A DNA stretch of 62,011 bases, the filler included, from a bacterium (GTDB lineage: Bacteria; JALSQH01), in NCBI GenBank assembly GCA_026985515.1. It is 3 parts of 3 records of this genome, joined end to end, with 100 filler letters (N's around TTAATTAATTAA, not from the genome) between each part and the next. Parts side by side here need not be neighbours in the genome. Positions count along the whole stretch, not along the records: positions 27,309 to 54,434 come from JALSQH010000222.1; 2 more parts are not named here. One strand, written 5' to 3'. A program made the position numbers and the translations under genes. Of the stretch, positions 3,213-56,024 are shown piece by piece; the first letter of the stretch is position 1; every line of letters begins with the position of its first letter. The notes under the pieces are model-generated. The model worked only from the letters and a program-made list of their open reading frames with translations, was not told where the DNA came from and made no database searches.

Positions 3213-4283
3213 TCACCAGAAATTTTCCTTTGCCCTCTGCATCAGGTAATGATCTATGAGAACAAGGTTGACCATAGCCTCTGCAACAGGAACTATCCTG
3301 GGACATATTACAGGATCGTGCCTCCCCTCAATGGAGATTTCCACCTCTTCACCCCTTTCATTCACACTTTTCTGTTTTTTTCTTATGGATGGGGTTGGTT
3401 TAACAGCTACCCTTATTACTATTTCTTCCCCCGTTGAAATGCCTCCCAGTATTCCTCCTGCATTGTTGCTCAGAAAAACCATTTTACCATCTTTCATACT
3501 CATCTGATCATTGTTTTCAGATCCTTTAATATCAGTTACTCCGAAACCACGACCAATTTCAATCCCTTTCACGGCTCCTATGCTCATCAAAGCCTTGGCA
3601 AGGTCAGCATCGAGTTTATCAAAAACTGGCTCCCCCAGTCCCGGAGGTAACCCTCTGACTTTAATTTCTATTTCACATCCTGTTGAATCACCCTCCCTTC
3701 TCAGCTGATCAACATATTCCATGGCTTTCTCAGCGGCTTCCGGATCACACATTCGAAGAGGGTTCTTTTCAATCTCCTCCTCAGCGAATTTTTCTGCTTT
3801 CACCGGTCCCACCTTTATTGTGTATCCTTTTGTGAATATTCCTTTGTGATTTAAAAGTTTTTTAGCAATCGCACCTCCCGCCACTCTTCCCACAGTTTCT
3901 CTTGCAGAAGCTCTTCCACCGCCTCTCCAGTCCCGTATTCCATACTTTGCCCAGTATGTAAAGTCAGCCTGGCCCGGTCTGAAAATATCTTTGATTGGTA
4001 CATATTTTGATGAGTCTACATCCACATTCCAGATAATCATTGAAATTGGTGTACCTGTTGTAACACCATTGAATACGCCGGATAGAATCTCCACTTTATC
4101 TTTCTCCCTTCTTGGTGAAACGACTCTGCTGGTACCCGGTCTTCTTCTATCAAGTTCCTTCTGAATATCCTCCTCTGATAGGGGTACTCCTGCAGGGCAA
4201 CCATCAACCACGACTCCCAGTGCCCTGCCGTGTGATTCTCCCCATGTTGTGATTCTGAATATTGTTCCAAAGGTGCTGCTCAT
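3213..4283 (-). CDS. aroC: Chorismate synthase
   Basis: [42 protein letters not shown]. Confidence 0.97.
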
Positions 4284-5059
4284 TACCGGTACCTTTGTTT
4301 GTTGTAGATTATCTTTTTCAGCATTTCAATCTTTTTTGATACTTTTTCCTTCCATTTAGGATTATCTGTCAGCTGATAAAATATGACAAGCGCTTTACGG
4401 TACCTGCCAGCTGCTATGTAGTGATTGGCGAGGGAGTATTTCGCTTCAGTTTTGAACCTTTCTGGTGCAGTTTCAGTTAATTCATTCAAAATTTCCTCAC
4501 CCTTTTTTTCTTCCCCACTCTCAAAATATATGTCACTTAGCAGAAGCATTATTTTCCATCTGAGTGGTGAATTATTTAACTCCGGAATGTAATTTTCAGC
4601 TTCCCTTTTAAAATCTTCTCGATCATTTGTAAAGAGGTAAGAGTACAGGAGGTCCATAATTACTTTCCTTTTCAAATCTGGCTTCAGGTTATATTGAAGA
4701 AGATGCTTCATAAGCGGGATCACCTCTTCATATTTTCCCTTCTCAAAAAGATAATCACCCGCCTCAAAAAGTGAATCAACTGCGTAAGTTGTTCCTGGAA
4801 AATATGTGTCAACTTTCTTCAGTATTTCAATTCCATTTCTTTCATCTCCGATTTTGAAGAGGTAAATCTCCCCCAGCTGTTTTAAGGCAACTGGAGTGAT
4901 GGATGAATCAGGATAATCCTTTATGATCTTGAGGAGCATCTCTGCGGCTTTCCCGTACTTACCCTCTTGTTGAAGAGCAACGGCTCTGTTGAAGAGGTTC
5001 TCCGCAGAGGTACAGGAGAAAAAACTAATCAAAAAGATTAAGAGAAGGTTCCTCTTCAT
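4283..5059 (-). CDS. TPR-repeat lipoprotein (BamD/CpoB-like)
   Basis: Likely start ATG 5059 (MKRNLLL...FFSC lipobox), followed by helical TPR pattern (YPDS...ALKQLGEIY). Confidence 0.7.
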
Positions 5060-27308: not shown

Positions 27309-27860
27309 AATATCCCGGTGTTTTACTTTTTTCAGGTCCTTACCGTTGATATACTTTATCGGTTCTCTGAATACAGTAAGCTTCCGGGTGAAAGAGATCT
27401 TAAGTCTGGAGATGTTGATGAATGGTGGTGGTATAACTTTTTCAATAATGATATTCATTCTTGCAAGATAACTCAGGTTTTTCAAACTGAAGTTTGTCCT
27501 TTTCATAGTATCTCCATAATCAAGAAAAGAATCACTCCAGTCAGATTCATCAATCAGATCATTCAATTTTACCAGCAGTTGTGGTGCCCTTTCTCCAATG
27601 AAGTTGTAAAGATCAATCTTGTTTTCATAGGCTACTGCTGCTATATCCTTTGATAGATCTCCAAATCCCAGTTCCCTGAAAAGTGGTTCAAAAAGGTTGT
27701 GTTTTACTTTTACAAATCCTCTGGTTCTTGTTGCAAGGTAAAATGGTGAAGTAAATGGGCGTAATGCAAGTATCTCTTCCACCGATAGATCAATCTTTCT
27801 TTTTAAAAAGATCCCTATCCCTTTTTCATAAGCTTCAAGCATGTAAACATCAATCTTCAT
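27309..27860 (-). CDS. Hypothetical partner of the MoxR ATPase, 3' truncated; possibly VWA-type
   Basis: Overlaps the ATPase stop and is open until the gap. No domain recognisable in the visible part. Confidence 0.6.
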
Positions 27861-29181
27861 CTCTTTCCTCCACGCTTCTGTTTAAAATTTTTTCTTCTAT
27901 CATTTCAAAAATTTCTTCAGCATCAATGGAGTGGTCATACTTTTCCACAACTTTTGTGACAATTGTTGTCAGGGAGTTAATCTGAGGTGATAGAGGCAGA
28001 TTCTTTTCCACATTTATTGCCACTGCTGAAAAAGACTCCATGGGCTGGATATCGTTAACGATGTTTCTTATTATGTTGAGTGTTAGCCAGTTTTCTTTCA
28101 GTGAAAAAATCTCCCACTTTTCCCCTAAGAGCAGAAGTTTCTCAATCAGGTTGACTACATCTTTTCTGCTCTGGATTTTAAAGGGATTTAAACTCTTTTC
28201 TCCATCAATATGGAGTGAAACCTCGTTGATATTCTCCACACTGGAGGAGATTGAAAATACATTGTAAACCATCTCCATCACCATATTTTCCTTGTCCAGT
28301 GTGAATTCTTCAGATGTGGCGTGGAATGGGAGTGAATTTAAAATGGTATTTATGGCAATTTCCTCATCCCATCTCCCGGTTATTATTTTCACACCTATAA
28401 GGTTGTGGTATATCATCTTCCATCTTCTTGGACTTATGTTGAATTCGGGGAATTTTCGTTTCCACATTTTTGAAAAGATCAGGATAAACTTTTTTATCTC
28501 AGGAGAATTTTCCAGTGCTTCCATGTATATATTCTTCAGAAGGTTCAGGTTCTGAATGAAATTTTCATCCTTTTCTATTCCATTCTTTCCGAAAACGAGA
28601 GGTGCATCTTCAGATGTCTTCACATCAAGTATTTTGTCAAGATAACTGTCTGTTTCCTTATCAAGGTTAATAATAAAGGCAAATCTGTCTGCGAGAGCCT
28701 CATCAAGGGGCATGGCACCTGCGTAACTTGGTGGATTCATGGCGGAGAAAATATATTTTAACTGCTTAAGCGGAACACCCATCAGTCTTCTTGATCTTAT
28801 AATCTCAAGCCATTTATTCTGTACACCGGGAAGCGCCCTGCTGATCTCATCTATCAGAATGAACTCTTTATCCCAGAGGGTTATCTCTCCCCTTATATAT
28901 TCAAGTTTCCCCTTTTTCATGCTTTCAATGTCAGGGAATCCCACAATATCTTCAAAAAGAGCCTTTGAAGCATCATAGGCGTGAAATTTTATCCCCAGCA
29001 TTTTTGCAATTCTCTCGGCGAGAAGGGTTTTACCCGTGCCATGGGGACCAATGAACAAAACCGGCATACCCGTGATAAGTGAATGGAGAATAAAGGGTTC
29101 AATGTGGTCATATCCGTAGATCTGAAGTTTCTTCAGGAAACCCAGAGGTGAGGTTAATTGTGTAACCTGTCTCATCTTCAA
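27850..29181 (-). CDS. MoxR/RavA-family AAA+ ATPase
   Basis: Walker A GPHGTGKT, Walker B ILIDEISRA, sensor AMNP, LDEALADRF, ISPRRW. Confidence 0.88.
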   Translation of the reverse strand: MKMRQVTQLTSPLGFLKKLQIYGYDHIEPFILHSLITGMPVLFIGPHGTGKTLLAERIAKMLGIKFHAYDASKALFEDIVGFPDIESMKKGKLEYIRGEITLWDKEFILIDEISRALPGVQNKWLEIIRSRRLMGVPLKQLKYIFSAMNPPSYAGAMPLDEALADRFAFIINLDKETDSYLDKILDVKTSEDAPLVFGKNGIEKDENFIQNLNLLKNIYMEALENSPEIKKFILIFSKMWKRKFPEFNISPRRWKMIYHNLIGVKIITGRWDEEIAINTILNSLPFHATSEEFTLDKENMVMEMVYNVFSISSSVENINEVSLHIDGEKSLNPFKIQSRKDVVNLIEKLLLLGEKWEIFSLKENWLTLNIIRNIVNDIQPMESFSAVAINVEKNLPLSPQINSLTTIVTKVVEKYDHSIDAEEIFEMIEEKILNRSVEERDED

Positions 29182-29245
29182 CTCCTTTTTTTCTTTCGTT
29201 TAACAAATTTTGTGATAGAAGTGAGATGTTGAAAATGTATTTTAA

Positions 29246-29258
29246 AATCAATTGGTTG
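29246..29258 (+). promoter_or_regulatory. IHF-consensus site
   Basis: AATCAA-TTGG-TTG matches WATCAANNNNTTR. Confidence 0.45.
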
Positions 29259-29278
29259 GAAATTAGGATGAGGAAGAT

Positions 29279-29314
29279 GTTAAAAAATTTTTAACCGTGT
29301 TAAAAATTTTTAAT
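29279..29314. repeat. Two tandem AT-rich palindromes, candidate operator/enhancer sites
   Basis: GTTAAAAA-A-TTTTTAAC (29279-29295) and TTAAAAATTTTTAA (29300-29313). Confidence 0.55.
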
Positions 29315-29444
29315 GTGGAAAGTATCAATTTTGCTTCCTTATTCGCTCCTGAAAGGGTCAGGAAGCCTTACTATTTGGGAGACTTCCGGGTCAAAAAAAG
29401 TGATTTTAAAATGTGGACTGAGAGAACAGCCAAGTTTTTAAATA

Positions 29445-29472
29445 GAAAAAGACAGGGGTATATCCCCCTGTC
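29445..29472 (-). terminator. Rho-independent terminator of the RCC1 lipoprotein gene
   Basis: GACAGGGG/CCCCTGTC stem just after the stop, with a T-tract on the minus strand. Confidence 0.7.
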
Positions 29473-29475
29473 CTT

Positions 29476-32400
29476 CTACCACTCAATTTTCACAGGGATG
29501 GGTATGAACTCATCAGGCTGATTGAGAAATCCCGTTTCTGTGTCTGCACCACCCCAGCAGTAGAGTTTACCCTGATCAGTAACGGCACAGGTGTGTCTTT
29601 TTGAAGCAAAGACCCTGACAATATCAGGATCTTCCGGAACTGGCACTTTTGTGGGTATGGCTGCACCACCTGCCAGTCCTGTACCTAACTGACCATCGTA
29701 ATTTATGCCCCAGCAATAAAGTTTATGATCATCTGCGATGGCGCATGTGTGAAGATTCCCGGTGGCAAGGGGGAAATATTCAATTTCACCAAATTTATTT
29801 TTTAAAAATGTCATAGTAGTGTTGACGGGTATGGGAGAGTAGTAAATTTGGTTAGCTGTTGCTCCCTGACCAAATACATTGGCAATATCTTTTCCCCAGC
29901 AGTACATCTTTCCCTGATCGTCAATGGCGCATGTAAACACCTCAGCAGGAGCAACCCAGTACCACCCTCTACCAGCTGGATGTGTTACCTCCACTGGAGT
30001 GGTAATGTCATCGGGATAATTACCCTGAGGGAACATGGCACCTGTTCCAGTCTGGCCCGATGTATTCCATCCCCAGCAGAACAACCGATGTGAATTTGTG
30101 ATGGCACATGTGTGGTACTGTCCGTTAAAGACATACGCTGGTGTTTCTACGGTTCCATTTTTTGTTTTTATAGTCACCGGATATGGGTAATAGTGTGGAT
30201 TTTTTGTCCCATCTCCTATCTGATAGTGGCCATTATCACCCATACAGTAAAGTTTCTGTTCGGGCTTTGTTGATATAAAACAGGTATGAGCGTAGCCTGT
30301 GGAGACCATGGAAACATTATCAGTTACAGGAGTCGGGTTGGAAATATTATTACCATGTGTCCCAATACCAATTTCTCCAAAAGTGTTTCTGCCCCAGCAG
30401 TAGAGAGTCCCTGATTTGTCTATTCCACACACTGTTGCATCATTCCATCCAATGGAAGGGAATAAAAATTCATCCATAACTTTAACCTTATGAAAGGTGC
30501 TTATGATGTTATCCATTCCCAGCTGATGGAATATGTTACTTCCCCAGCAGAAAACACCATCGTCGCTTATTCCACATGTGAAGGCAGAATTTCCATTATC
30601 AAAGGCTTCCCCTGCGATTGCAAAGTACCATTCTGAATCCTGTCCTGTGGGTGAGATTTCCACAGGAGTGAACTTTTTCCCTGTGGTAAGGGCATTTGTT
30701 TCTCCATACGGGTTGTTGCCCCAGCAGTAGAGATCATAATTCTCTGTAACTGCACACATCCCCCTTGCTCCTGCCCCTGTGGAGAGATCGATAACTTCAG
30801 CATCGGATAATGTTTGCAGCGGCAGGGGCGTTGAGGAATTGTTACTGATTCCTGTACCCAGCTCTCCATTCGTATTGTCACCCCAGCAGAATACCTGGCC
30901 CATTTCATCTATGGCACAGGTGCTTAGATATGCCGCAGAAACCTTTACCCATTTCAAGCCGTAGGGATGTACAACCTCCTGTGGAATATTGGTGTGATAA
31001 ATTGATACACCACTTCCCAGCTGTCCATAATACCCGTATCCCCAGCACCACAGATTTCCATTTTCATCTATTCCACATCCATGGTATCCTCCGGCTGCGA
31101 CATCTGTCCAGCCCGCTCCGTCGGGATTGTCAACAATAATCGGTACAGATGAATTGGTCCCAATGGTGGAATTATTTCCCAGTTGCCCATGATCGTTGTT
31201 ACCCCAGCAGTACAGTTTATTTTCATGTATTCCACAGGCGAACCAGCCACCGGGTGAGATTATATTCCATCCACTATCTTGTGGAGATGGGGTTATTAAA
31301 TGCACTGGCGTATCTACATAATCGTGGTAATCAGGATCACCTGTGGTGACTCCATTACCAAATTCTCCATTACCCAGTTGACCATATTTATTTAAACCCC
31401 AGCAGTAAACTGCCCCCTGACTCCTTATCCCGCAGTTGTAATCCAGACCTGAATAAATCTGGTAGAACCTTAATCCCGTATCGTGAGGTGTGGAGAACAC
31501 AGAAGAGGTGTTTTCCCTGACATCAACTTTTTTATTTTTATTTATACCCCAGCACCATGTTTCATAATTTTCATCCACTGCACATGCATGATCGCCCCCT
31601 GCACTCAGATCAATCCATTTCCTGCCGGCAGGGTTTTTAACCCTGTATGGTGGAATGACAAATCTCTGACCATCTACCCCGTTTCCTATCTGTCTCTCAA
31701 AATTTCTTCCCCAGCACCATATATCACCTTGTGTTTTATAACCCATCTGTGGTTTTGAAACTGCATCAAAGGCACAGGTGAATAGAGTTCCCTTTACCAC
31801 TTTTGTGAATATATGTTTTTTCGTTGTGAAAGTGTAGGTGGCACTTTCAACCGTAAAGGTTGTATCTGATGCCATCACTTTCCACTTATATTTTTTATCA
31901 GCTGATAAATCTCTGAGAGTAAATGAAATGGTGGAATCTGAGGATGAAAATGTTGTTACTGGAGAGAAAAACTCTTCATTCTCTCCTGTAACATACAGAG
32001 AGTAGGTTATTTTATCCCCATTTATGTCACTGGAAGTCCGCCACTGAAAGGTTACATCATAGTAAACATCCTTCTCTCCATTTGCCGGTGAAATGAGGTC
32101 GGGTTTTGATGGTGGAAAGTTAATTGTAAATGCTCTTGTTTCACTCGTTACATTTCCTCCCCTCCCATCTTCGCAGATGACCTTCCAGTAGAAATTTCCA
32201 CTGTATGGAGTAATATCTGTAAGAGTGTAAGAGTATTCCACAAATGAACCTATCAGACGCATATTGTTCTGGTCTGTACCGAGGAAGAGATCACAGGTTA
32301 CAGTATCACCGTCACTATCAGCAACATTCCATTTGAATTTAACCGGTAGTGTCAGATCCTGTGAATTATCTGCAGGGGAGATTAGTTGCAGATTTTCCGG

Positions 32401-32787
32401 TGGGTGGTTAACTGTAAATACTGAAATATCACTTTCTGTGAGAGCCTTTCCATCATCTGCCACGATCTTCCAGAAGTATGTAACTTTCCCGTTAAGGTTT
32501 GAGAGGGTGTATGTTGTTGATGTGGAAGTTGCCACCTCAGAGAAATTCCTGCTCCCCTCAGCAAGGTAGATGTGGTAGGTGATGGGATCTCCATCCTGGT
32601 CAGTGGATTTTTCCCATTTCAGAACTACAGGTTCGTTGATGTTGAGACTCCCATTTTCTGGAGAAAGTAGAAGAGGTGCAGAAGGTGGATTGTTAGTTTT
32701 TGGTGTGGTTTTACCCTTTTCATTTTGTTTGTGACCACAACTCAGGGTGAAAAAAACGAGGAAAAGAAAGACAAAAAATCTCTTCAT
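29476..32787 (-). CDS. Surface lipoprotein with 3 FN3-like repeats and 14 RCC1/BLIP-II repeats
   Basis: Start ATG 32787 (SD GGAGG), lipobox TLS-C, three N.PP..L.SP...D.DGD...Y.WK repeats, and 14 C(W/M)G-anchored repeats counted, most of the CWG.N..GQLG type. Confidence 0.88.
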   Translation of the reverse strand: MKRFFVFLFLVFFTLSCGHKQNEKGKTTPKTNNPPSAPLLLSPENGSLNINEPVVLKWEKSTDQDGDPITYHIYLAEGSRNFSEVATSTSTTYTLSNLNGKVTYFWKIVADDGKALTESDISVFTVNHPPENLQLISPADNSQDLTLPVKFKWNVADSDGDTVTCDLFLGTDQNNMRLIGSFVEYSYTLTDITPYSGNFYWKVICEDGRGGNVTSETRAFTINFPPSKPDLISPANGEKDVYYDVTFQWRTSSDINGDKITYSLYVTGENEEFFSPVTTFSSSDSTISFTLRDLSADKKYKWKVMASDTTFTVESATYTFTTKKHIFTKVVKGTLFTCAFDAVSKPQMGYKTQGDIWCWGRNFERQIGNGVDGQRFVIPPYRVKNPAGRKWIDLSAGGDHACAVDENYETWCWGINKNKKVDVRENTSSVFSTPHDTGLRFYQIYSGLDYNCGIRSQGAVYCWGLNKYGQLGNGEFGNGVTTGDPDYHDYVDTPVHLITPSPQDSGWNIISPGGWFACGIHENKLYCWGNNDHGQLGNNSTIGTNSSVPIIVDNPDGAGWTDVAAGGYHGCGIDENGNLWCWGYGYYGQLGSGVSIYHTNIPQEVVHPYGLKWVKVSAAYLSTCAIDEMGQVFCWGDNTNGELGTGISNNSSTPLPLQTLSDAEVIDLSTGAGARGMCAVTENYDLYCWGNNPYGETNALTTGKKFTPVEISPTGQDSEWYFAIAGEAFDNGNSAFTCGISDDGVFCWGSNIFHQLGMDNIISTFHKVKVMDEFLFPSIGWNDATVCGIDKSGTLYCWGRNTFGEIGIGTHGNNISNPTPVTDNVSMVSTGYAHTCFISTKPEQKLYCMGDNGHYQIGDGTKNPHYYPYPVTIKTKNGTVETPAYVFNGQYHTCAITNSHRLFCWGWNTSGQTGTGAMFPQGNYPDDITTPVEVTHPAGRGWYWVAPAEVFTCAIDDQGKMYCWGKDIANVFGQGATANQIYYSPIPVNTTMTFLKNKFGEIEYFPLATGNLHTCAIADDHKLYCWGINYDGQLGTGLAGGAAIPTKVPVPEDPDIVRVFASKRHTCAVTDQGKLYCWGGADTETGFLNQPDEFIPIPVKIEW

Positions 32788-32876
32788 AGCCCCCTCCTGC
32801 AAAGATCTGGTTTTAAATATAAAATTTTCAAACTTTGTTTTTGAATTAACTTCTCCTCCCTAGAGAAGTTACTTTG

Positions 32877-35575: not shown

Positions 35576-36682
35576 ATGGAAAGTTTTGAATATTCTGGTA
35601 GGAATTCTCTTTTCGTTGATCTTAACGCTATTTATGAGAACCTCAGATATCTGAAAGAAGTTTCCCGCAGGCAGATTATTCCTGTAATCAAGGCAGATGG
35701 TTACGGTCTTGGTGCCGTAGCCATTGCGAGATATCTTGAAGGTAAAGGTATAAGATATTTTGCCGTGGCAACTTATGAAGAGGCGATGGAACTGAGGGAC
35801 TCAGGGATAAAGGGGAAAATACTCATTTTAAGTGGTTCACCGGATGATCCATATGAAAAGATGCAGAGCCTTGATTTTGTCCCGGTTGTGTATTCCAAAG
35901 ATCAGCTGGTTTCAATAAAGAAAAATCTTAAGAATCCCATTGCCGTACATATTAAATTTAACACCGGAATGAACAGGCTTGGTTTTGATGAAGAGGAGTT
36001 TAAAGGTTTATTTTCCGAAATGGATGGGGTTGAAATTGAGGGTGTATTGACACACTTTTCAAAGGCAGACACGAGTAAAAGTTATACGGAGTGGCAGATT
36101 TCAAGATTTAAAAAAATCCTTAAAATGTTTAAGATGGAAAATGTAAAGGTCATCCACTCTGCAAATTCTGCTGGTATATTGAGGGGTTTTTCTTTTGGAA
36201 ATGCGGTGAGACCAGGAATCTTCCTTTATGGGGCCCTTCCCAATCCCGATTTTCCGAGGCCCCTGAAGCAGAGGATACCCTACAGATTTCTATGTAAAAT
36301 TCTTGAGATCAGAAAGTTAAAAAAGGGTGACAGGGTAAGCTATGGTGGCACATATATTGCCGGAAGTGATATGAAAATAGCTATCGTTGGATGTGGATAT
36401 GCAGACGGGATTCCCCGCCTGTTGTCAAACAGGGGGTCTTTTCTTTTCGAGGGCAGAAGGCTTCCCATAACCGGAAGGGTTTGCATGGATATGACTATCA
36501 TAGATGTGACATCTGTGCCATCCCTCAGAAGAGGAGACTCTGTGGTATATCTGGGTGAAAGTGGAAAAGAGGTTATATATGCAGATGATGTGGCAAAAAA
36601 GGTGAAGACCATTGGTTATGAAATACTTACCTCAATTTCGTCGAGGGTAAAAAGAAAGTATAGAGGTGATGGAACTGATTGA
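35576..36682 (+). CDS. alr: Alanine racemase
   Basis: VIKADGYG (PLP Lys), HIKFNTGMNRLG, GYADG, GRVCMD. Confidence 0.95.
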   Translation: MESFEYSGRNSLFVDLNAIYENLRYLKEVSRRQIIPVIKADGYGLGAVAIARYLEGKGIRYFAVATYEEAMELRDSGIKGKILILSGSPDDPYEKMQSLDFVPVVYSKDQLVSIKKNLKNPIAVHIKFNTGMNRLGFDEEEFKGLFSEMDGVEIEGVLTHFSKADTSKSYTEWQISRFKKILKMFKMENVKVIHSANSAGILRGFSFGNAVRPGIFLYGALPNPDFPRPLKQRIPYRFLCKILEIRKLKKGDRVSYGGTYIAGSDMKIAIVGCGYADGIPRLLSNRGSFLFEGRRLPITGRVCMDMTIIDVTSVPSLRRGDSVVYLGESGKEVIYADDVAKKVKTIGYEILTSISSRVKRKYRGDGTD

Positions 36683-39710: not shown

Positions 39711-41251
39711 TAGAGATTATTGTTAATGGAAAGAGGTATTCCTTTCCAGAAGGAAGGTGGAGTCTGGCAGATCTCCTCTGGAGTGCAGGGTATGAGATCC
39801 CTCTTCCCTGTGCAGGTCTTGGAAACTGTGGAAAGTGCCAGATAAAAGTCAGGGGTGATGTTGAAATCCTTGACAGCGATAGAAAACTGATTCCTCCTCA
39901 CAGACTTTCTGAGGGATATCTTCTTGCATGCAGGGTGAGGAAATTAAGGGGAAGCGTGGAGGTTGAACTGCCTAATGTGGAGAGGAGAAAGAAGATAGAA
40001 ATTGAGGAGGTGAAGGTAGAGAGGGTGAATGCCGGTGTTGATCTGGGTACCACCTCCATTGTGGTGAATTTCTCCCCTGTTGAAAGGGGGCGTGTTTTTT
40101 ACTCCTCTTCCTCCCTGAATCCCCAGACAAGGTATGGTGCTGATGTAATAAGCAGAGTTACGTATATAGGTGGTGATAACAGCAGATTGCAGAAGATGAG
40201 ACAGGGGGTGGTGGAGTATTTAAACGGTGAGATAGAAAGTGTCAGAGAAGATATTGGTTTCAAAAAGGTTGAACTTGTGGGAGTGGCGGGAAATTCAATA
40301 ATGGAGCATATTTTTCTTAACCTGGATCCCTCTCCCCTTACCAGATTTCCCTTCACCCTTTCCTTTAAAGATGGAGTTTTTAAAAGAGGTGAAGAACTGG
40401 GCATAAGTGCTGAAAAAGTGTTCATTTTCCCACTTGTTGGAGCCTATGTAGGGGGAGACACAGTTGCATTACTGATGGATCTGGAGCCCTTAAAGAAGCC
40501 TGCCAGGCGAGTCATTGTTGATATTGGTACCAATGGGGAGATTGTTGTTCAGAATGGTGAAAATTTATTCGCAACCGCGGCAGCTGCCGGTCCAGCCTTT
40601 GAGGGAGGAAATATAACCTTTGGAATGAGAGCAGAAAATGGTGCAATTGAACGTTTCTGGATGGAAGATGATCGTTTGAAATACAGGACAATTGGGAATC
40701 TACCTCCAGAAGGAATATGTGGATCTGGACTGATGGATCTCATAGCGGTTCTGACAGAAGAGGGAGTGGTGGATGAAAATGGAGCAATCAGGGATCCCAT
40801 GGAAATAGATTCTCCCCTTTTTAGCAGAGTGAAAGAAAAAAATGGTGAGAGAATTTTCCTCGTTTACAGAGATGTAAAAAGAGAAATTTATGTAACCCAG
40901 AAAGATATAAGAGAATTCCAGCTGGCAAAGGGAGCCATAAGAGCAGGTATGGAAGTCTTGTTGAAAAAAGCGGAACTGAGCTGGCAGGATATTGATGAAG
41001 TGATAATTGCCGGTGCATTTGGCAGTTATCTTATGCCTGATAGCCTTATCAGTGTGGGGATGTTTCCGGAGGATGTGAGGAATAGAATCGTATTTACAGG
41101 TGATGCTGTTATAAGGGGTGTCAATAAAGTACTTGGCAGGGATTTATTTGATGAAGCAAACAGAATGGCCAGGAAAGTTAAATATGTGGAACTATCTCTT
41201 GAAGAGGGTTTTCAGGAAATATTTCTCTCTTCACTCTCTTTCAGGAGGTGA
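39707..41251 (+). CDS. RACo/DUF4445 ASKHA ATPase with N-terminal [2Fe-2S] domain (reductive activator of corrinoid proteins)
   Basis: CAGLGNCGKC...LAC, DLGTT, NPQ.RYGADVISR, DIGTNGE, AGPAFEG, GICGSG, AGAFG. Confidence 0.9.
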   Translation: MIEIIVNGKRYSFPEGRWSLADLLWSAGYEIPLPCAGLGNCGKCQIKVRGDVEILDSDRKLIPPHRLSEGYLLACRVRKLRGSVEVELPNVERRKKIEIEEVKVERVNAGVDLGTTSIVVNFSPVERGRVFYSSSSLNPQTRYGADVISRVTYIGGDNSRLQKMRQGVVEYLNGEIESVREDIGFKKVELVGVAGNSIMEHIFLNLDPSPLTRFPFTLSFKDGVFKRGEELGISAEKVFIFPLVGAYVGGDTVALLMDLEPLKKPARRVIVDIGTNGEIVVQNGENLFATAAAAGPAFEGGNITFGMRAENGAIERFWMEDDRLKYRTIGNLPPEGICGSGLMDLIAVLTEEGVVDENGAIRDPMEIDSPLFSRVKEKNGERIFLVYRDVKREIYVTQKDIREFQLAKGAIRAGMEVLLKKAELSWQDIDEVIIAGAFGSYLMPDSLISVGMFPEDVRNRIVFTGDAVIRGVNKVLGRDLFDEANRMARKVKYVELSLEEGFQEIFLSSLSFRR

Positions 41252-41713: not shown

Positions 41714-43225
41714 GTGGATATCTACAACGTATTTCTTGACAGAGATTTCAGAATACTCAGCATAGGTTCCTTTCTAATTGAGAAGTTAAGGTACAGGGAG
41801 GAACATCTCAAAAACAGATCCTTTTTTGAAATTGTATTCCCGATGGACAGAGATAGTTTCAGAGAGTTTCTCACCCAGTCAAAATCCGGGTGTATCTGCT
41901 CTGTGAGACTGGTTGACAGGACGGATCGAATTGTATACGCCAGAGTAAAGTATCACTCAGATGAGAAGGGGTACTATCTCAAGGTTGAAATCATACCTTC
42001 TCCACTTGAAGAGGTTGATGATCTGAAATGGCAGCTTGAGATTCACCAGAAGGGGCTTGAAATGATAGGAGCCGGCTTAATTTTCACAGATATTCATGGT
42101 ACCATTCTCTATGTGAGCAGATCAGCTGAAAGGTTGCTGAAACTTGTTTCCAGGAACATCATTGGTAAAAACATCAACGAATTTATATCCTCAGACAACA
42201 TTGAATTCATAACATCAGGAGATGATGAAATAAGGGAAGTAAAATTTCACTATCGTGGAAAAACCATATACCTCGGGTATCACAGCGATTATGTTAGCAG
42301 TACAGATGGAAGAATTGCGGGATATCTTATAGCATTTATGGAAATTTCTGACCTCAAGAGGCTTGAAAAGGAGCAGGCAAGGATAGACAAACTTGCTTCG
42401 CTTGGAATTCTGGCATCGGGGATTGCCCATGAAATAAGGAATCCCCTTGCAGGAATAAAGGCAATGGCCCAGACTATTCAGAGTGAACTCTCTGAAAGTG
42501 ATCCAAACAGAAAGTATGTGGACAGAATAATTAATCAGGTCAATCGCCTTGATAAAATACTTAAGGCTTTTTTTGCCTATGCCAGACCAAAGGTACCCTT
42601 TCGTACAGAGGTGAATTTTAAAGAAGTTGTAGGAGATATTGATTTGATGTTGAGGCACCAGTGTGAGAAGAAGGGTGTGAAGTTGAAGATAAGAGTTCCT
42701 TCAGATTTACCCGATCTCATTGTTGACAGAGATCAGCTGCAGCAGATTCTCATCAATCTCGTCCTGAACGCCATAGATGCTGTGGAAGAAGGCAGAGGCG
42801 TTATTGAAATAATTGCAGCCAAAAGCAAGAAAGTACCGGGTACAGCTTCTGGCAACAGAAGTTGCAGGAGAAAAGATGTATGTGGTGTCGAAATTATGGT
42901 GAAGGATAATGGTTCAGGTATCGATCCAGGGATCATGGATAAAATATTTGATCCATTTTTTACCACTAAATCAAAGGGAACCGGTCTGGGATTATCCATA
43001 GTACATCAACTTGTCACTGAAAATTGTGGCGAAATTTCAGTGGAATCTGAACCCGGGAAAGGTACAACATTCCATCTTTTCTTTCAGAGTCGCTGGACAA
43101 AATGTCAAAATAGCCTTTTATGTAAGTGTTTGAATTTTAAGCATAAATTCCCCGCATCCTGGCACAAAATTTGCAGCAAAATCGCAAAAGGAGGTGTATT
43201 ATGGAGGAAACAAGGAATATTTTGA
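41714..43225 (+). CDS. Cytoplasmic PAS-domain sensor histidine kinase (NtrB-like)
   Basis: No TM; PAS-like N-terminus. H-box AHEIRNPL, N-box NLVLNA, DNGSGI, FDPFFTTK, GTGLGL. The ~46-aa tail after the final strand is atypical. Confidence 0.9.
   Translation: MDIYNVFLDRDFRILSIGSFLIEKLRYREEHLKNRSFFEIVFPMDRDSFREFLTQSKSGCICSVRLVDRTDRIVYARVKYHSDEKGYYLKVEIIPSPLEEVDDLKWQLEIHQKGLEMIGAGLIFTDIHGTILYVSRSAERLLKLVSRNIIGKNINEFISSDNIEFITSGDDEIREVKFHYRGKTIYLGYHSDYVSSTDGRIAGYLIAFMEISDLKRLEKEQARIDKLASLGILASGIAHEIRNPLAGIKAMAQTIQSELSESDPNRKYVDRIINQVNRLDKILKAFFAYARPKVPFRTEVNFKEVVGDIDLMLRHQCEKKGVKLKIRVPSDLPDLIVDRDQLQQILINLVLNAIDAVEEGRGVIEIIAAKSKKVPGTASGNRSCRRKDVCGVEIMVKDNGSGIDPGIMDKIFDPFFTTKSKGTGLGLSIVHQLVTENCGEISVESEPGKGTTFHLFFQSRWTKCQNSLLCKCLNFKHKFPASWHKICSKIAKGGVLWRKQGIF
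43160..43175 (+). promoter_or_regulatory. Sigma54 (-24/-12) promoter
   Basis: TGGCAC-AAAAT-TTGCA, an exact consensus, 25 nt before ATG 43201. IHF-like site at 43123-43135 (minus strand ATTCAA-ACAC-TTA). Confidence 0.75.
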
Positions 43226-43557
43226 AGGAGTTTTTGAAAGTTGAGGGTGTAATTGTAGCCGCCCTTGTGAGTTTTGATGGTTTTCTTATTGATGGAGTTG
43301 GTCCTCAGGGAGTTGATCTGGAGGATATGGCAGTTGCTGCATCCACCGGATATGGGCTTGGAAAGAGGCTTGGCGAGAATATTCAGGGGGGAGACATTAA
43401 GCAGATAATGCTGGAGTATGAGAAGAGATCAGTTATTGTTGCCAAGGTACCTTTTGTTGATGTTATTCTTTTCCTTGTAAGTGAGGAGGGTGCGAATCTT
43501 GGAGCCATCAGATACAGCATAAAGAAACATGCAGGAGAATTGAGTAAGGTACTTTAA
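43201..43557 (+). CDS. Roadblock/LC7 (MglB-like) protein
   Basis: VEGVIVAALVSFDGFLI...QIMLEYEK...ANLGAIRY; SD AGGAGG. Confidence 0.88.
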   Translation: MEETRNILKEFLKVEGVIVAALVSFDGFLIDGVGPQGVDLEDMAVAASTGYGLGKRLGENIQGGDIKQIMLEYEKRSVIVAKVPFVDVILFLVSEEGANLGAIRYSIKKHAGELSKVL

Positions 43558-43578
43558 ATTTTAATCAGGAGGTAAAAG

Positions 43579-44085
43579 ATGGCTTTTGAAGATGTCGTCA
43601 TAGAAAGAAATCTGAATAAATGGAATGTACTTGTTGCTTCTTTGATCGCAGGTTTTGATAAACTTGGGGTTCTCAGTCAGGCAGTTGTAAATAAAGATAT
43701 GGAAGTTGTGGCTGACAAACTGGCACGATTTTTTAAAGTAAAGGGAAATGTGCCACAGGTTGATTCTTCATCATCGTTTGAAGAAAACATGAAGAGGATT
43801 ATTGAATTCATAGATAGAGAGCTTGAACTTGCAGGTGAGAGTTCCGTTACATTGGAAGGGGAAAATGTAACGTTTGAGGTTGTGGGTAATACCTGCCATT
43901 TCTGTCCAAAAGGGGTTGGAGAGGCTGAATTACCTGGTACAGCGTGTCCATATCCATCTCTTTTGATGAATTTTGCGAATAAATTTCTGCCGGAAGATCA
44001 GCAGGTGGAGGTGGTACTTCAGGACAGAAACTATTTGAAAAAAGAAGGTGGAAAGTGTAGAATAATTTTCAGAAGGAAAAGCTAA
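43579..44085 (+). CDS. V4R-like small protein with four Cys (CxxC, CP, C-terminal C)
   Basis: Helical N-half, then NTCHFCPKG...TACPYP...GGKCRIIF, a pattern typical of V4R/HNOB-like folds; SD AGGAGG. Confidence 0.6.
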   Translation: MAFEDVVIERNLNKWNVLVASLIAGFDKLGVLSQAVVNKDMEVVADKLARFFKVKGNVPQVDSSSSFEENMKRIIEFIDRELELAGESSVTLEGENVTFEVVGNTCHFCPKGVGEAELPGTACPYPSLLMNFANKFLPEDQQVEVVLQDRNYLKKEGGKCRIIFRRKS

Positions 44086-44100
44086 AAGGGGCAGAAACAG

Positions 44101-45174
44101 ATGTCAGGAAAGAGGGTTCTCGTTGTGGATGATGAAGAGGATATACTTGTACCCACAACAAATTTTTTGAAGAAGAAATTGAAAAATACAGAGGTTCTGT
44201 CAGCCTTTGATGGTGAAGAGGCTTTAAAAATTGTAAGTGAAAGACCTGCGGATGTTGTTGTTACAGATATAAGAATGCCCAAGCTTGATGGACTGGAGTT
44301 TATGGTAAGGGCAAAACAGAAAAATCCTTCTACAAGATTCATAGTTATGACTGCCTATGGTTCACCCTCAGTGAGAGAAAAGGCAACCCGGCTTGGGGCG
44401 GTACACTACATTGAAAAGCCCTTTGAACTGGACGACCTCTACGAAAAAGTAAAGCAACTTCTTGAATTTGGAGATGGTTTCCAGGGAAGTGTAGCTCAGC
44501 TTGAGTTAACAGATATTGTTCAGGTTGTATGTCTTGGTAAAAAGTCAGTGACAATAGAGGTAAAAAGCGGTGTTAATACGGGATATATTTATGTACTGGA
44601 TGGGGACATAATCAATGCAAAAACGGGCAATCTGGAGGGTGAAGAAGCTTTTTATGAAATAGTCTCCTGGAGTTCAGGGGAATTCCGTTTCCTTCCACCA
44701 GAGGAAGATGTGGAAAAGAGGATTGATATGAGATGGGAAAATCTTCTCATGGAGGCAATGAGAATAATAGATGAGAGGAGGAGAGAAAGGGAAAAATCAG
44801 AGGAAGCGGAGTTTGAGATTGATTTTAACACCTTTTTTGCCCGGTTGAAGGAGAGGGTTGATGGTGTTGTTTCTTCCGGGATTATTGATCTCTCCTCCGG
44901 TAAGTTAATAGCAGAGGATGAGGTAAGTGTAGAGGATAAACTGGATGAGAAAGTTGAGCGATACGCAGAGTTCCTGCTTTTCACCAAAAATTTGATAGAT
45001 GAACTGGAAAAAAGTGACCTCAGGGAAATATTTCTGGTTCTTGAGAAAGTGGCAATAGCCTTTTATAAAATAGGCGAGCGTTTTGTATGGGGGATTAAGA
45101 TAGAAGATAAGGACAATCTGGGGAAGCTCAAAATTGTGGTGGAGAAGATTCTGAGGGAGGCTGGAAAAGAATGA
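44101..45174 (+). CDS. Response regulator: REC + DUF4388/PATAN + C-terminal Roadblock-like domain
   Basis: VLVVDDE, TDIRMP, MTAYG, KPF; then GFQGSV..LELTDIVQ...GEEAFYEIVSWSSGEFRF...LLMEAMRIIDE; C-terminal VDGVVSSGIID...NLGKLK. Confidence 0.88.
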   Translation: MSGKRVLVVDDEEDILVPTTNFLKKKLKNTEVLSAFDGEEALKIVSERPADVVVTDIRMPKLDGLEFMVRAKQKNPSTRFIVMTAYGSPSVREKATRLGAVHYIEKPFELDDLYEKVKQLLEFGDGFQGSVAQLELTDIVQVVCLGKKSVTIEVKSGVNTGYIYVLDGDIINAKTGNLEGEEAFYEIVSWSSGEFRFLPPEEDVEKRIDMRWENLLMEAMRIIDERRREREKSEEAEFEIDFNTFFARLKERVDGVVSSGIIDLSSGKLIAEDEVSVEDKLDEKVERYAEFLLFTKNLIDELEKSDLREIFLVLEKVAIAFYKIGERFVWGIKIEDKDNLGKLKIVVEKILREAGKE

Positions 45175-54434: not shown

Positions 54435-54534
54435 NNNNNNNNNNNNNNNNNNNNNNNNNNNNNNNNNNNNNNNNNNNNTTAATTAATTAANNNNNNNNNN
54501 NNNNNNNNNNNNNNNNNNNNNNNNNNNNNNNNNN
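54435..54534. other. Artificial contig linker (N44-TTAATTAATTAA-N44)
   Basis: Same linker as at 27209. Confidence 0.97.
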
Positions 54535-55997
54535 ATTTTTGCATAGTTATCTGTAACCCTCACCACATCTACAGTTAAATTTGAAGGGGTACCGTTCCAC
54601 CAGTCAGAATCGGGATCACTATCCACACCGAAATAATCACCGGATTGATACAGATCATTCCAGTCAGGAATGGAGCAACCACCCCCTGCTTTAGTTCTTT
54701 CAAGCTGATACAATCCATCTGCCTGTATAAGAGAGAGAGCATAATGCTCTTTGCTGCAATCGTTTCCATTCTCAGGAACACATTCCTGTGTGTTGTAAGG
54801 ATAAATGGGATTTAAAAAACCATTCCCCTTACTCTCATCCACATGCCAGATATAGACGGCACCCTTCCAGTGGGGAGAGAGATTTGAGAACATCTGATGA
54901 TCAAAACCATAATCCTTCCGAAAAGCAATGAGGAAATATTCACTTCCACCAGAAGGGTTGTACCTGTAAACGACATTTGACAATTGTATCGGATAGACGA
55001 GCCTCCCACAGGTGTTTATTGTTATGTCAACGGGATACACCCACCCCAGTTTCATCTTCAACCAGGCATCAAGGGGATAGGGGTTTGAACCCGGTGGAGT
55101 TCCGGTATGCACTCCATAAGCCATCAGAGAGTATGGACCATCTCCACAGGATGAATAATCTGTGTCATACAGGTCGGGCAATCCCAGTGCATGGCCAAAT
55201 TCATGGGCAAAGACTCCCATTCTCACGGGCATCGTGTCATTCTCAGAGAACATTTCAGGTCCCATGACATAAACAATATTGCCCGAAAAACCTGTTCCTG
55301 CAGTGGTGGAAAGCGTATATATATTCCTGTGAGACCATATATTCATGGGATCAGTCCTGTCACTCTCCCCTCCCTCTCCAGCATGGATTATTACTATGGA
55401 TTCGGGCATACCATCACCATCATTATCGTACTGCATCAGATCAAGGGAGGGATCGTTATTCATTGCCATATTCAGAGCATCATCCACAACTTCCAGAGCT
55501 CCTGCAGGTTCCCAGTAATCACCTCTTACCCTGAAACCATAAGCATTTGAATCGGGATCACAAGCAGTGGCATTGCAGGCATAGTACTGCCTGGTGTGGG
55601 GAAGAGTATACCAGCCATAAACATCCACCTCACCAATTCCAAATCTCCCCCCCGAATTCTCAAGATAAAAATCATTCATGGATCTGAAAGGATAGTGTGG
55701 TCCGCCGGCAAACATGTCGTGAAAATAATCTGGCGAAGAGGGAATTTCAATGTCATCTCTGTGGGAATAATCAGAATATTCCACAAGAATTATCAGTATT
55801 TTCCATCTGCCCTCAACCATCTTTGAGAATGGAGAAAATGAAAAATATGTGGTTGTCCTGAAGGGGAGGGAAGGATACAGCCTGCCTCTGAAAGAGAAGC
55901 CTCCTCCATCATAGGGAGGGGCTGCAAAATCACCTCTGACCGGTGAGTGTGAAAGGATCAGAATAGCGAAAACTACGAAGAGTGTTTTCAACTTCAT
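54535..55997 (-). CDS. Secreted M6-family (immune inhibitor A-like) zinc metalloprotease, 3' truncated
   Basis: Signal peptide; YDNDGDG, IIHAGEG, IWSH, AHEFGHALGLPDLYD, SLMAYG, KLGW. Confidence 0.9.
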
Positions 55998-56008
55998 ACA
56001 GAATGGTT

Positions 56009-56024
56009 CGCAATCCCCGTGCCA
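56009..56024 (-). promoter_or_regulatory. Sigma54 (-24/-12) promoter of the M6 protease
   Basis: Minus strand TGGCAC-GGGGA-TTGCG fills the 27-bp intergenic gap. Confidence 0.7.

Follow-up and report, generated by a model that had tools for sequence, protein, structure and literature searches.

Four closely packed genes on the plus strand occupy positions 41714 to 45174 of the 62-kb stretch of bacterial DNA analyzed here (assembly GCA_026985515.1; hereafter, the window). They encode a soluble sensor histidine kinase, a short, free-standing Roadblock/LC7 protein, a protein with four conserved cysteines (the 4-Cys protein), and a response regulator in which a receiver (REC) domain, a PATAN domain, and a second Roadblock domain are joined in a single chain (Table 1). 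An earlier note on this DNA had described the locus as a signaling cassette behind a sigma-54 promoter, with no GTPase gene of its own. Loci fetched for comparison carry L numbers here, and related genomes carry G numbers.

Genes, domains, and promoter motif of the cassette

The tight spacing of the three downstream genes that the earlier note had claimed was borne out, with gaps of 21 nucleotides between the Roadblock and 4-Cys genes and 15 nucleotides between the 4-Cys and regulator genes and with a Shine-Dalgarno sequence at each. Within the regulator, the REC domain has its residues D10/D11, D56, T84, and K106 intact, and the NCBIfam receivers nearest to it are of the AtoC/NtrC type. The PATAN domain matches DUF4388 (PF14332) with 80.8 bits, against a cutoff of 25, over profile positions 1 to 121 of 122, which places it within the family. 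No DNA-binding family was detected in the regulator by Pfam. All three of these points agree with the earlier note, as does the presence of a second Roadblock-like domain, for which the evidence is less direct.

The C-terminal 118 residues of the regulator, taken alone, match Robl_LC7 only below the Pfam cutoff (E = 0.038), and a word-index search with the C-terminal 130 residues recovered only the protein itself. At the profile level, an hhalign comparison of nine regulator-type C termini with ten free Roadblock proteins gave 96.7% probability (E = 3.7e-10) over 118 columns, and a PDB search with the C-terminal profile found a Thorarchaeota Roadblock protein (7f8m; 5.5e-7) and MglC (2.4e-4), followed by CvnB5 and MglB. 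The AlphaFold2 model of the domain (predicted local distance difference test [pLDDT] score of 87.6) has the a-b-b-a-b-b-b-a topology of a Roadblock fold, and Foldseek returned 140 matches at E <= 0.001, with Asgard Roadblock proteins, MglB, and LAMTOR2 on top (TM scores of 0.70 to 0.82). Among relatives, Pfam does detect a Roadblock domain in the PATAN-Roadblock proteins of L021 (1.5e-6) and L023 (9.1e-10), the whole region of which is alignable, and one relative with 39% identity (P0111) has precomputed REC, DUF4388, and Robl_LC7 domains. The regulator C terminus is a Roadblock domain; a novel or DNA-binding domain in this position was rejected on the basis of both profile and fold.

The free Roadblock protein is the simpler case, and here the earlier call stood as well: its match to Robl_LC7 (PF03259; E = 2.3e-12, 46.9 bits against a cutoff of 23) establishes family membership. 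In PDB, a profile built from this protein and its relatives matched 7f8m (1.6e-22), CvnB5 (3.2e-11), MglB (3.4e-10), and MglC (3.5e-7). The protein is 77% identical to its counterpart in L016 and 57 to 58% identical to those in L001, L003, and L004. An MglB would be expected to adjoin an MglA GTPase and to coevolve with it, and neither the window nor the cassette loci were found to encode a GTPase. The small residues A64 and G68 in helix a2 of Myxococcus xanthus MglB, which contact MglA (PMC3199381), correspond to G and R in the MAFFT register and to S and G in a register shifted by two residues, so that the alignment is ambiguous at these positions.

The kinase is, as had been noted, a soluble PAS kinase. 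Pfam matches comprise PAS (residues 115 to 210; E = 2.9e-8), HisKA (residues 232 to 291; 1.6e-14), and HATPase_c (residues 338 to 458; 4.2e-25); a weak PAS-like stretch lies at residues 5 to 81, the H box (H239) and the N and G boxes are present, and no long hydrophobic segment was seen on inspection by eye. The closest NCBIfam models are of the AtoS, ZraS, and NtrB types, each of which scores under its cutoff, and the kinase in the equivalent position of L003 is 34% identical over the catalytic core. The kinase does not, however, end before the promoter, as had been thought; its open reading frame (ORF) crosses the motif and runs 25 nucleotides into the Roadblock gene. The segment in question is a nonconserved tail of approximately 45 residues beyond HATPase_c (positions 43090 to 43225), and since the kinases of relatives terminate immediately past the ATPase domain, we take this tail to be incidental.

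The motif itself, TGGCACaaaatTTGCA, is an exact match to TGGCAC-N5-TTGCA, with the end of TTGC located 26 nucleotides 5' of the Roadblock ATG and the aaaggagg ribosome-binding site of that gene downstream of the motif. The window contains three copies of the core (TGGCAC-N5-TTGC), where 0.07 would be expected (approximately 40-fold enrichment), and none of 100 shuffled sequences reached three, an enrichment which argues that the organism very probably uses sigma-54 promoters; rpoN is present in all four related genomes (G001 to G004). Of the 48 loci fetched, just two have the core: L014, which is the window's own metagenome copy, and L016, where it precedes the ATG of the orthologous Roadblock gene by 25 nucleotides and its spacer sequence is different. 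There, it lies in a 127-nucleotide intergenic region following the C-terminal part of a sigma-54 activator gene (Sigma54_activat, AAA_lid_14, and HTH_8). With an exact motif, a suitable distance to the gene, and positional conservation in L016, the site has the sequence features of a sigma-54 promoter, in keeping with the earlier note. A scan for sigma-70 promoters between positions 41000 and 46100 yielded 7 promoter-like sites, compared to 9.9 in shuffled sequences (i.e., no excess), and the few terminator-like sites in the same region are all inside genes. The second exact copy of the core (36346 to 36360, plus strand) is located at the 3' end of the gene for alanine racemase, a short distance before mlaE (36666), and the third (56010 to 56024, minus strand) precedes the listed start of an M6-peptidase ORF (54483 to 55997, minus strand) by 13 nucleotides.

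Table 1. Features of the cassette, with positions counted along the window
Feature	Position	Strand	Basis
Soluble sensor histidine kinase	41714-43225	+	Pfam PAS, HisKA, HATPase_c
Sigma-54-type promoter motif (-24 TGGCAC, -12 TTGCA)	43160-43175	+	Exact match
Free short Roadblock/LC7 protein, 118 aa	43201-43557	+	Pfam Robl_LC7
4-Cys protein, MJ0207 family (PF27343), 168 aa	43579-44085	+	Precomputed family, conserved cysteines, AlphaFold2 model
REC-PATAN-Roadblock response regulator	44101-45174	+	Pfam, alignment with relatives
REC domain, regulator aa 6-118	44116-44454	+	Response_reg, E = 3e-26
PATAN (DUF4388) domain, regulator aa 128-226	44482-44778	+	DUF4388, E = 1.1e-22
C-terminal Roadblock-fold domain, regulator aa 240-357	44818-45171	+	hhalign, PDB profiles, AlphaFold2 fold

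Sequence family and predicted fold of the 4-Cys protein

No match to the 4-Cys protein was found in our local copies of Pfam and NCBIfam, even at E <= 10, the Pfam copy being one without the PF27343 model. In precomputed annotation, PF27343 is assigned to 18 of 18 close homologues (60 to 100% identity), the window's own protein included, and an Atlas structure match gives this family the name MJ0207, a match that "meets the bar for a name." The family is small: in an exhaustive profile search of 1.84 billion proteins, 57 cluster representatives scored E <= 1e-10, and the total at E <= 1e-3 was 83. Cysteines C106, C109, C123, and C160 are invariant in the 18 close homologues, and in 48 wider members, with identities down to 22%, C106, C109, and C160 remain invariant while C123 is conserved in at least 90%. 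In the motif that they define (C-x2-C-P-K-G-V-G ... G-T-x-C-P-x-P), the four cysteines probably form a structural zinc site. A four-cysteine zinc site has been described for TRAPPC3 of Thorarchaeota, with a similar site in PoxR and ligand cavities in both proteins (PMC10933270).

A PDB sequence-profile search with the 4-Cys protein produced chance matches only (E of approximately 1). When its AlphaFold2 model was compared with 48,161 chains by VIA-align, the top match was Bet3 (2cfh_A; Z of 11.2, root mean square deviation of 3.2 Å, 145 residues aligned), followed by TRAPPC3 of Thorarchaeota (7yh2_A; 10.9), other TRAPP subunits (10.1 to 9.4), H-NOX (8.9), and BcsD (8.7) and, lower on the list, by the sensor domains of DmpR (8.1) and PoxR (8.0) and the V4R protein MJ1460 (7.2). 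Sequence identity to the matched structures amounts to 4 to 14%. An Atlas feature search pointed to Asgard clusters automatically named 4-vinyl reductase (0.93) and TRAPP component (0.91, Thorarchaeota). The Pfam model for V4R (PF02830) matched none of the 48 family members even at E <= 1, nor did it match the window protein at E <= 10; the model for TRAPP Bet3 (PF04051) likewise matched 0 of the 48. Because of these fold matches, together with the lack of a Pfam V4R or TRAPP match, the 4-Cys protein, as modeled, belongs to the Bet3/V4R/H-NOX fold class but to a sequence family of its own. The label "V4R-like" given in the earlier note therefore holds at the level of the fold, where DmpR, PoxR, and MJ1460 are among the matches, and not at the level of sequence; actual membership in the Pfam V4R family was rejected.

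Conservation of the gene set and location of GTPase genes

The closest relatives, in which the 4-Cys protein is 63 to 66% identical, are four metagenome-assembled genomes (MAGs) labeled Acidobacteria and a number of metagenome contigs; GyrA of the window is 58 to 63% identical to GyrA of these MAGs. The metagenome scan for the 4-Cys family was performed with a 12-row alignment. After removal of copies (L015 of L001, L017 of L004, and L014 of the window itself), six distinct close loci remained (L001 to L004, L016, and L018). The earlier note had staked its reading on conservation of the trio in other genomes, and indeed the Roadblock, 4-Cys, and REC-PATAN-Roadblock genes were found in the same order in five of the six (L001, L002, L003, L004, and L016), the sixth (L018) being cut inside the 4-Cys gene, with the regulator gene downstream. 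A kinase gene lies directly upstream of the trio in L001, L003, and L004, and the C-terminal end of a kinase is visible in L002. The close relatives have methionine aminopeptidase and aconitase B genes at the flanks, whereas the window has genes for a D-Tyr-tRNA deacylase and a PEBP-family protein; since the flanking genes differ, the gene set travels as a unit. In L016, a stand-alone 122-residue receiver protein is encoded 1.7 kb downstream of the cassette (4218 to 4583), after genes for HU-like and thioredoxin-domain proteins.

Farther out, 20 distant loci (L019 to L038) encode 4-Cys proteins with 27 to 37% identity, and a Roadblock gene stands beside the 4-Cys gene in nine of them (L019 to L023, L025, L028, L035, and L036); four others (L033, L034, L037, and L038) were too short to judge. 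Some of these Roadblock matches are members of the search profile itself, the independent ones being those of L019 and L020 (the 4-Cys proteins of which are identical), the second copy in L022, and the short ORFs of L035 and L036. In L021 and L025, a PATAN-Roadblock fusion without REC is followed by a free Roadblock gene and then by the 4-Cys gene, and a probable fusion of the same kind lies directly upstream of the 4-Cys gene in L023. In a maximum-likelihood phylogeny of the family, built from 24 members after removal of three short or duplicate rows and the copies of other loci, adjacency to a Roadblock gene required seven changes, at least four of which were forced by well-supported branches, and the label was no more clustered than shuffled labels were (187 of 500 as low). 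Linkage between the Roadblock and 4-Cys genes is therefore old or recurrent and not confined to one clade. A narrow profile detected the 4-Cys family in 1 of the 301 genomes sampled from the phylum of the relatives, and a wide profile detected it in 4 of 151 from their class, namely, G001 to G004. Seven other PATAN loci that were fetched (L039 to L045) contain no Roadblock domain. In L019 (2714 to 6495) and L020 (1 to 1659), a Roadblock ORF separates the MJ0207-family gene from the molybdenum hydroxylase genes that precede it.

The statement that no GTPase is encoded in the unit was found to be correct for the cassette and for the window: no small-GTPase family was detected among 51 ORF products of the window (7 plus 44, the latter searched at E <= 1e-5), and a tblastn search of the window with the MglA of a relative gave no match. 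A GTPase gene is adjacent in only 1 of 26 related loci (L022) and in none of the close ones. The statement does not extend to the related genomes, all four of which have an adjacent Roadblock and Ras-like gene pair (mglB-mglA) on another contig. Compared with M. xanthus structures, the pair of G003 matches MglA at 1.6e-85 and MglB at 2.6e-54; the pairs of G002 and G004 are 95 to 99% identical to it, and that of G001 is known from Pfam matches in the same arrangement only. Therefore, "GTPase-less" describes the locus rather than the organism. On the related question of whether an MglA might merely have been displaced from the window's locus, the homologous loci lack MglA as well, while the four genomes do have mglB-mglA elsewhere. 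Each of these genomes also has 3 to 10 PATAN matches and 7 to 9 matches to PilB/PilT-type ATPases. Two of them, G001 and G004 (L005, L006, and L010), contain MglA-like domains, 52 to 59% identical to MglA, in ORFs of approximately 400 residues. Between the mglB-mglA pairs and these paralogues, a GTPase partner in trans is possible. The single adjacent case, in L022 (867 to 2747), is an operon of Roadblock, small GTPase, and Roadblock genes, divergent from the MJ0207-family gene, on a contig that is probably archaeal, with an archaeal-type DUF7287 gene as a neighbor.

Possible functions and known counterparts

We hold, with roughly even confidence, that the locus specifies a protein-interaction module that is controlled by phosphorylation and targets the polarity or pilus machinery, MglA-family GTPases participating in trans. 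By family knowledge, the soluble NtrB/AtoS-type PAS kinase would phosphorylate the REC domain of the regulator, the output of which would consist of two protein-binding parts, PATAN and the C-terminal Roadblock domain; for the cassette as a whole, the output is probably protein contacts and not DNA binding. The three downstream genes apparently have a sigma-54 promoter to themselves, in which case expression of the trio would be gated by an enhancer-binding activator whose gene lies elsewhere. The gene order suggests that the two Roadblock units dimerize, as is usual for this fold, and that the Bet3-like 4-Cys protein partners them, possibly carrying a small hydrophobic ligand. Phosphorylation would then alter what the PATAN/Roadblock end binds, the likeliest targets being the machineries of cell polarity and of type IV pili, among them MglA-family GTPases with genes elsewhere in the genome.

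Several observations weigh against this interpretation. The contacts proposed among the cassette proteins are suggested by gene order, and the link to motility is suggested by analogy and by the gene content of relatives. The model of the 4-Cys protein is of moderate quality (pLDDT of 69.6 and predicted TM score of 0.71, with the cysteine loop below 50, too low for the geometry of the site to be relied on), and Foldseek returned nothing for it at E <= 0.001, the best real proteins being TRAPPC3/Bet3 (TM scores of 0.55 to 0.58) and H-NOX. The sigma-54 motif is absent from L001 to L004, where the kinase gene is 0 to 16 nucleotides from the Roadblock gene; a separate promoter is thus not a general feature of the cassette, and no enhancer-binding activator is encoded in the 62-kb window. 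The sensor regions of the kinases vary among relatives, and L016 has the sigma-54 activator in the place of the kinase. In 7 of the 20 distant loci (L024, L026, L027, and L029 to L032), the available sequence shows no Roadblock neighbor, and the 4-Cys family is thus not bound to Roadblock proteins everywhere; in one of these (L032, 1 to 5614), the MJ0207-family gene lies between a polyketide synthase (PKS) KR-ACP gene and a nonribosomal peptide synthetase (NRPS) C-A-T gene.

Rather than recruiting a GTPase in trans, the cassette could be a conservon-like switch in which no GTPase is involved and the phosphorylatable REC domain replaces the CvnD/MglA GTPase docking on the Roadblock platform, an alternative that we consider rather unlikely. 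Its appeal lies in the order of histidine kinase, Roadblock, small protein, and switch protein, which mirrors CvnA-B-C-D of the conservons as presented in PMC4316618, in the match of the free Roadblock profile to CvnB5 (3.2e-11), and in the lack of a GTPase gene in the window and in 25 of 26 related loci; moreover, 328 of 749 MglB-family genes are counted as orphans in the same source (PMC4316618). However, where conservons have CvnC (DUF742) and CvnD (a GTPase), the cassette has an MJ0207-family protein and the REC-PATAN-Roadblock regulator, neither conservon family being matched by its third and fourth genes, and the cassette kinase is soluble, with PAS domains. Furthermore, the mglB-mglA pairs of all four related genomes and the MglA-like paralogues of two make a partner in trans available, L022 has its Roadblock-GTPase-Roadblock genes adjoining the 4-Cys gene, and distant relatives retain PATAN-Roadblock proteins without REC or kinase.

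Slightly less probable is a reading in which the 4-Cys protein works by itself as a ligand sensor and regulates the kinase, with the Roadblock protein as a mere adaptor. H-NOX proteins control HnoK-type kinases in this fashion, the modeled fold is near those of H-NOX (Z of 8.9) and the phenol sensors DmpR and PoxR (Z of approximately 8), and a soluble kinase gene is adjacent in the window, L001, L003, and L004. Ligand cavities are reported for the superfamily as well (PMC10933270). Yet the recurrent neighbor of the family is Roadblock, with no kinase in L021, L025, L028, and L035 and an activator instead in L016, and the kinase of the window has PAS sensors of its own. Finally, it is very improbable that the genes have no joint function, with a metabolic or cofactor-handling 4-Cys protein and a motif that is not a working promoter, the genes being read through from the kinase: although the family does occur in unrelated contexts (the NRPS/PKS genes of L032, PmbA/TldD and PFK in L030, and Cmk and HerA in L027), its Atlas look-alikes include ATC-hydrolase-like and rubredoxin-C-terminal-like clusters, and the L001-to-L004 clade lacks the motif, the Roadblock linkage spans 27 to 100% identity and several deep branches, the gaps are tight with a ribosome-binding site at each, and the motif is 40-fold overrepresented, its position (and not its spacer) being conserved in L016 behind an activator gene.

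Returning to the protein-interaction module, a close parallel is found in the MglA/MglB/MglC/RomR system of M. xanthus, in which Roadblock proteins serve as dimeric platforms and the REC protein RomR is reported to form a complex with the Roadblock proteins MglC and MglB (PMC10329633). The cassette differs from it in several respects: the unit is without a GTPase; its free Roadblock protein is short (118 residues) and scores better against archaeal Roadblock proteins than against MglB; a single chain combines REC, PATAN, and Roadblock; the set includes a Bet3-fold 4-Cys protein, which is absent from the M. xanthus module as described; and there is a dedicated kinase and a sigma-54 promoter. 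PATAN genes near mglA or mglB in some genomes are mentioned in PMC4316618, which cites Makarova 2006 for them. The PatA-type regulators (PixG, PixE, LsiR, and PatA) also combine PATAN with REC and have no DNA-binding domain, and in Synechocystis, PATAN is described as the output domain that binds the pilus motor proteins PilB1 and PilC (bioRxiv 10.1101/2021.06.11.447907). In those regulators, PATAN is N terminal and REC is C terminal, whereas the cassette regulator has the reverse order, with REC first and a Roadblock domain appended, and lies outside a chemotaxis-like operon.

For the 4-Cys protein, the best structural matches are Bet3/TRAPPC3 of TRAPP, its Thorarchaeota counterpart, and the V4R sensors PoxR and DmpR (Z of 11.2 to 8.0); the 4-Cys family has no Pfam match to either group. 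In TRAPP, Bet3-fold subunits pair with longin subunits, the fold of which is related to Roadblock (PMC3747258). In the Asgard archaeon MK-D1, GTPase genes reportedly do not, as a rule, share operons with genes for Roadblock, longin, or TRAPPC3 proteins (PMC10933270), whereas in the cassette, the Bet3-like and Roadblock genes are adjacent to each other. The archaeal regulators NitrOD3 and MetOD1 have REC fused to a Roadblock-like domain or to a V4R/H-NOX-like domain with conserved cysteines, as non-DNA-binding outputs (PMC5847659); they are archaeal, lack PATAN, and are not described there with the three-gene set of the cassette.

The PATAN-MglB link, the large number of orphan MglB genes, and archaeal fusions of REC to Roadblock-like or V4R-like outputs are thus already known. 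In open-access full text and bioRxiv, we found no description of a gene set combining Roadblock, V4R/Bet3-like, and PATAN proteins; given this and the report on MK-D1 operons, the new element is the conserved adjacency of Bet3-fold and Roadblock genes captured by a two-component system, although the neighborhood tables of PMC4316618 might already list such sets. None of the orphan MglB-family genes had been experimentally characterized by 2014, according to that survey. The cassette gives one class of orphan Roadblock protein a defined set of conserved partners, namely, a kinase, a Roadblock-ended regulator, and a Bet3/V4R-fold protein, and makes the function of such orphans testable with four small, soluble proteins. 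The more unusual point is the Bet3-like/Roadblock adjacency across deep branches of the family, seeing that in eukaryotes, Bet3-fold and longin/Roadblock-fold subunits together build regulators of Rab and Rag. Should the cassette proteins bind each other, they would offer a simple bacterial model of how such platforms work and arose; should they not, the locus would still illustrate cleanly how the output of a two-component system can consist of protein binding alone.

A bolder proposal is that the Bet3-fold 4-Cys protein and the two Roadblock units make up a physical complex that serves as a phosphorylation-gated platform, acting as an exchange factor or GTPase-activating protein for MglA-family GTPases encoded elsewhere. 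We regard this as doubtful, much as we do the ligand-sensor alternative. A complex prediction with alignments of the free Roadblock protein, the regulator C terminus, and the 4-Cys protein, the last as the partner, scored 0.02 against a mark of 0.32; run without controls, it is neutral on binding. If the proposal were true, the complex would be a prokaryotic equivalent of the Bet3-plus-longin/Roadblock arrangement found in TRAPP and Ragulator, and the pairing of Bet3 and Roadblock folds as a GTPase regulator would predate eukaryotes and exist in bacteria under two-component control.

Elsewhere in the window, on the minus strand (27850 to 32802), a gene adjoining that of a MoxR-type AAA ATPase encodes a protein of 1,108 residues with RCC1 repeats and an fn3 domain. 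The best-known instance of RCC1-like repeats is in a GTPase regulator of eukaryotes.

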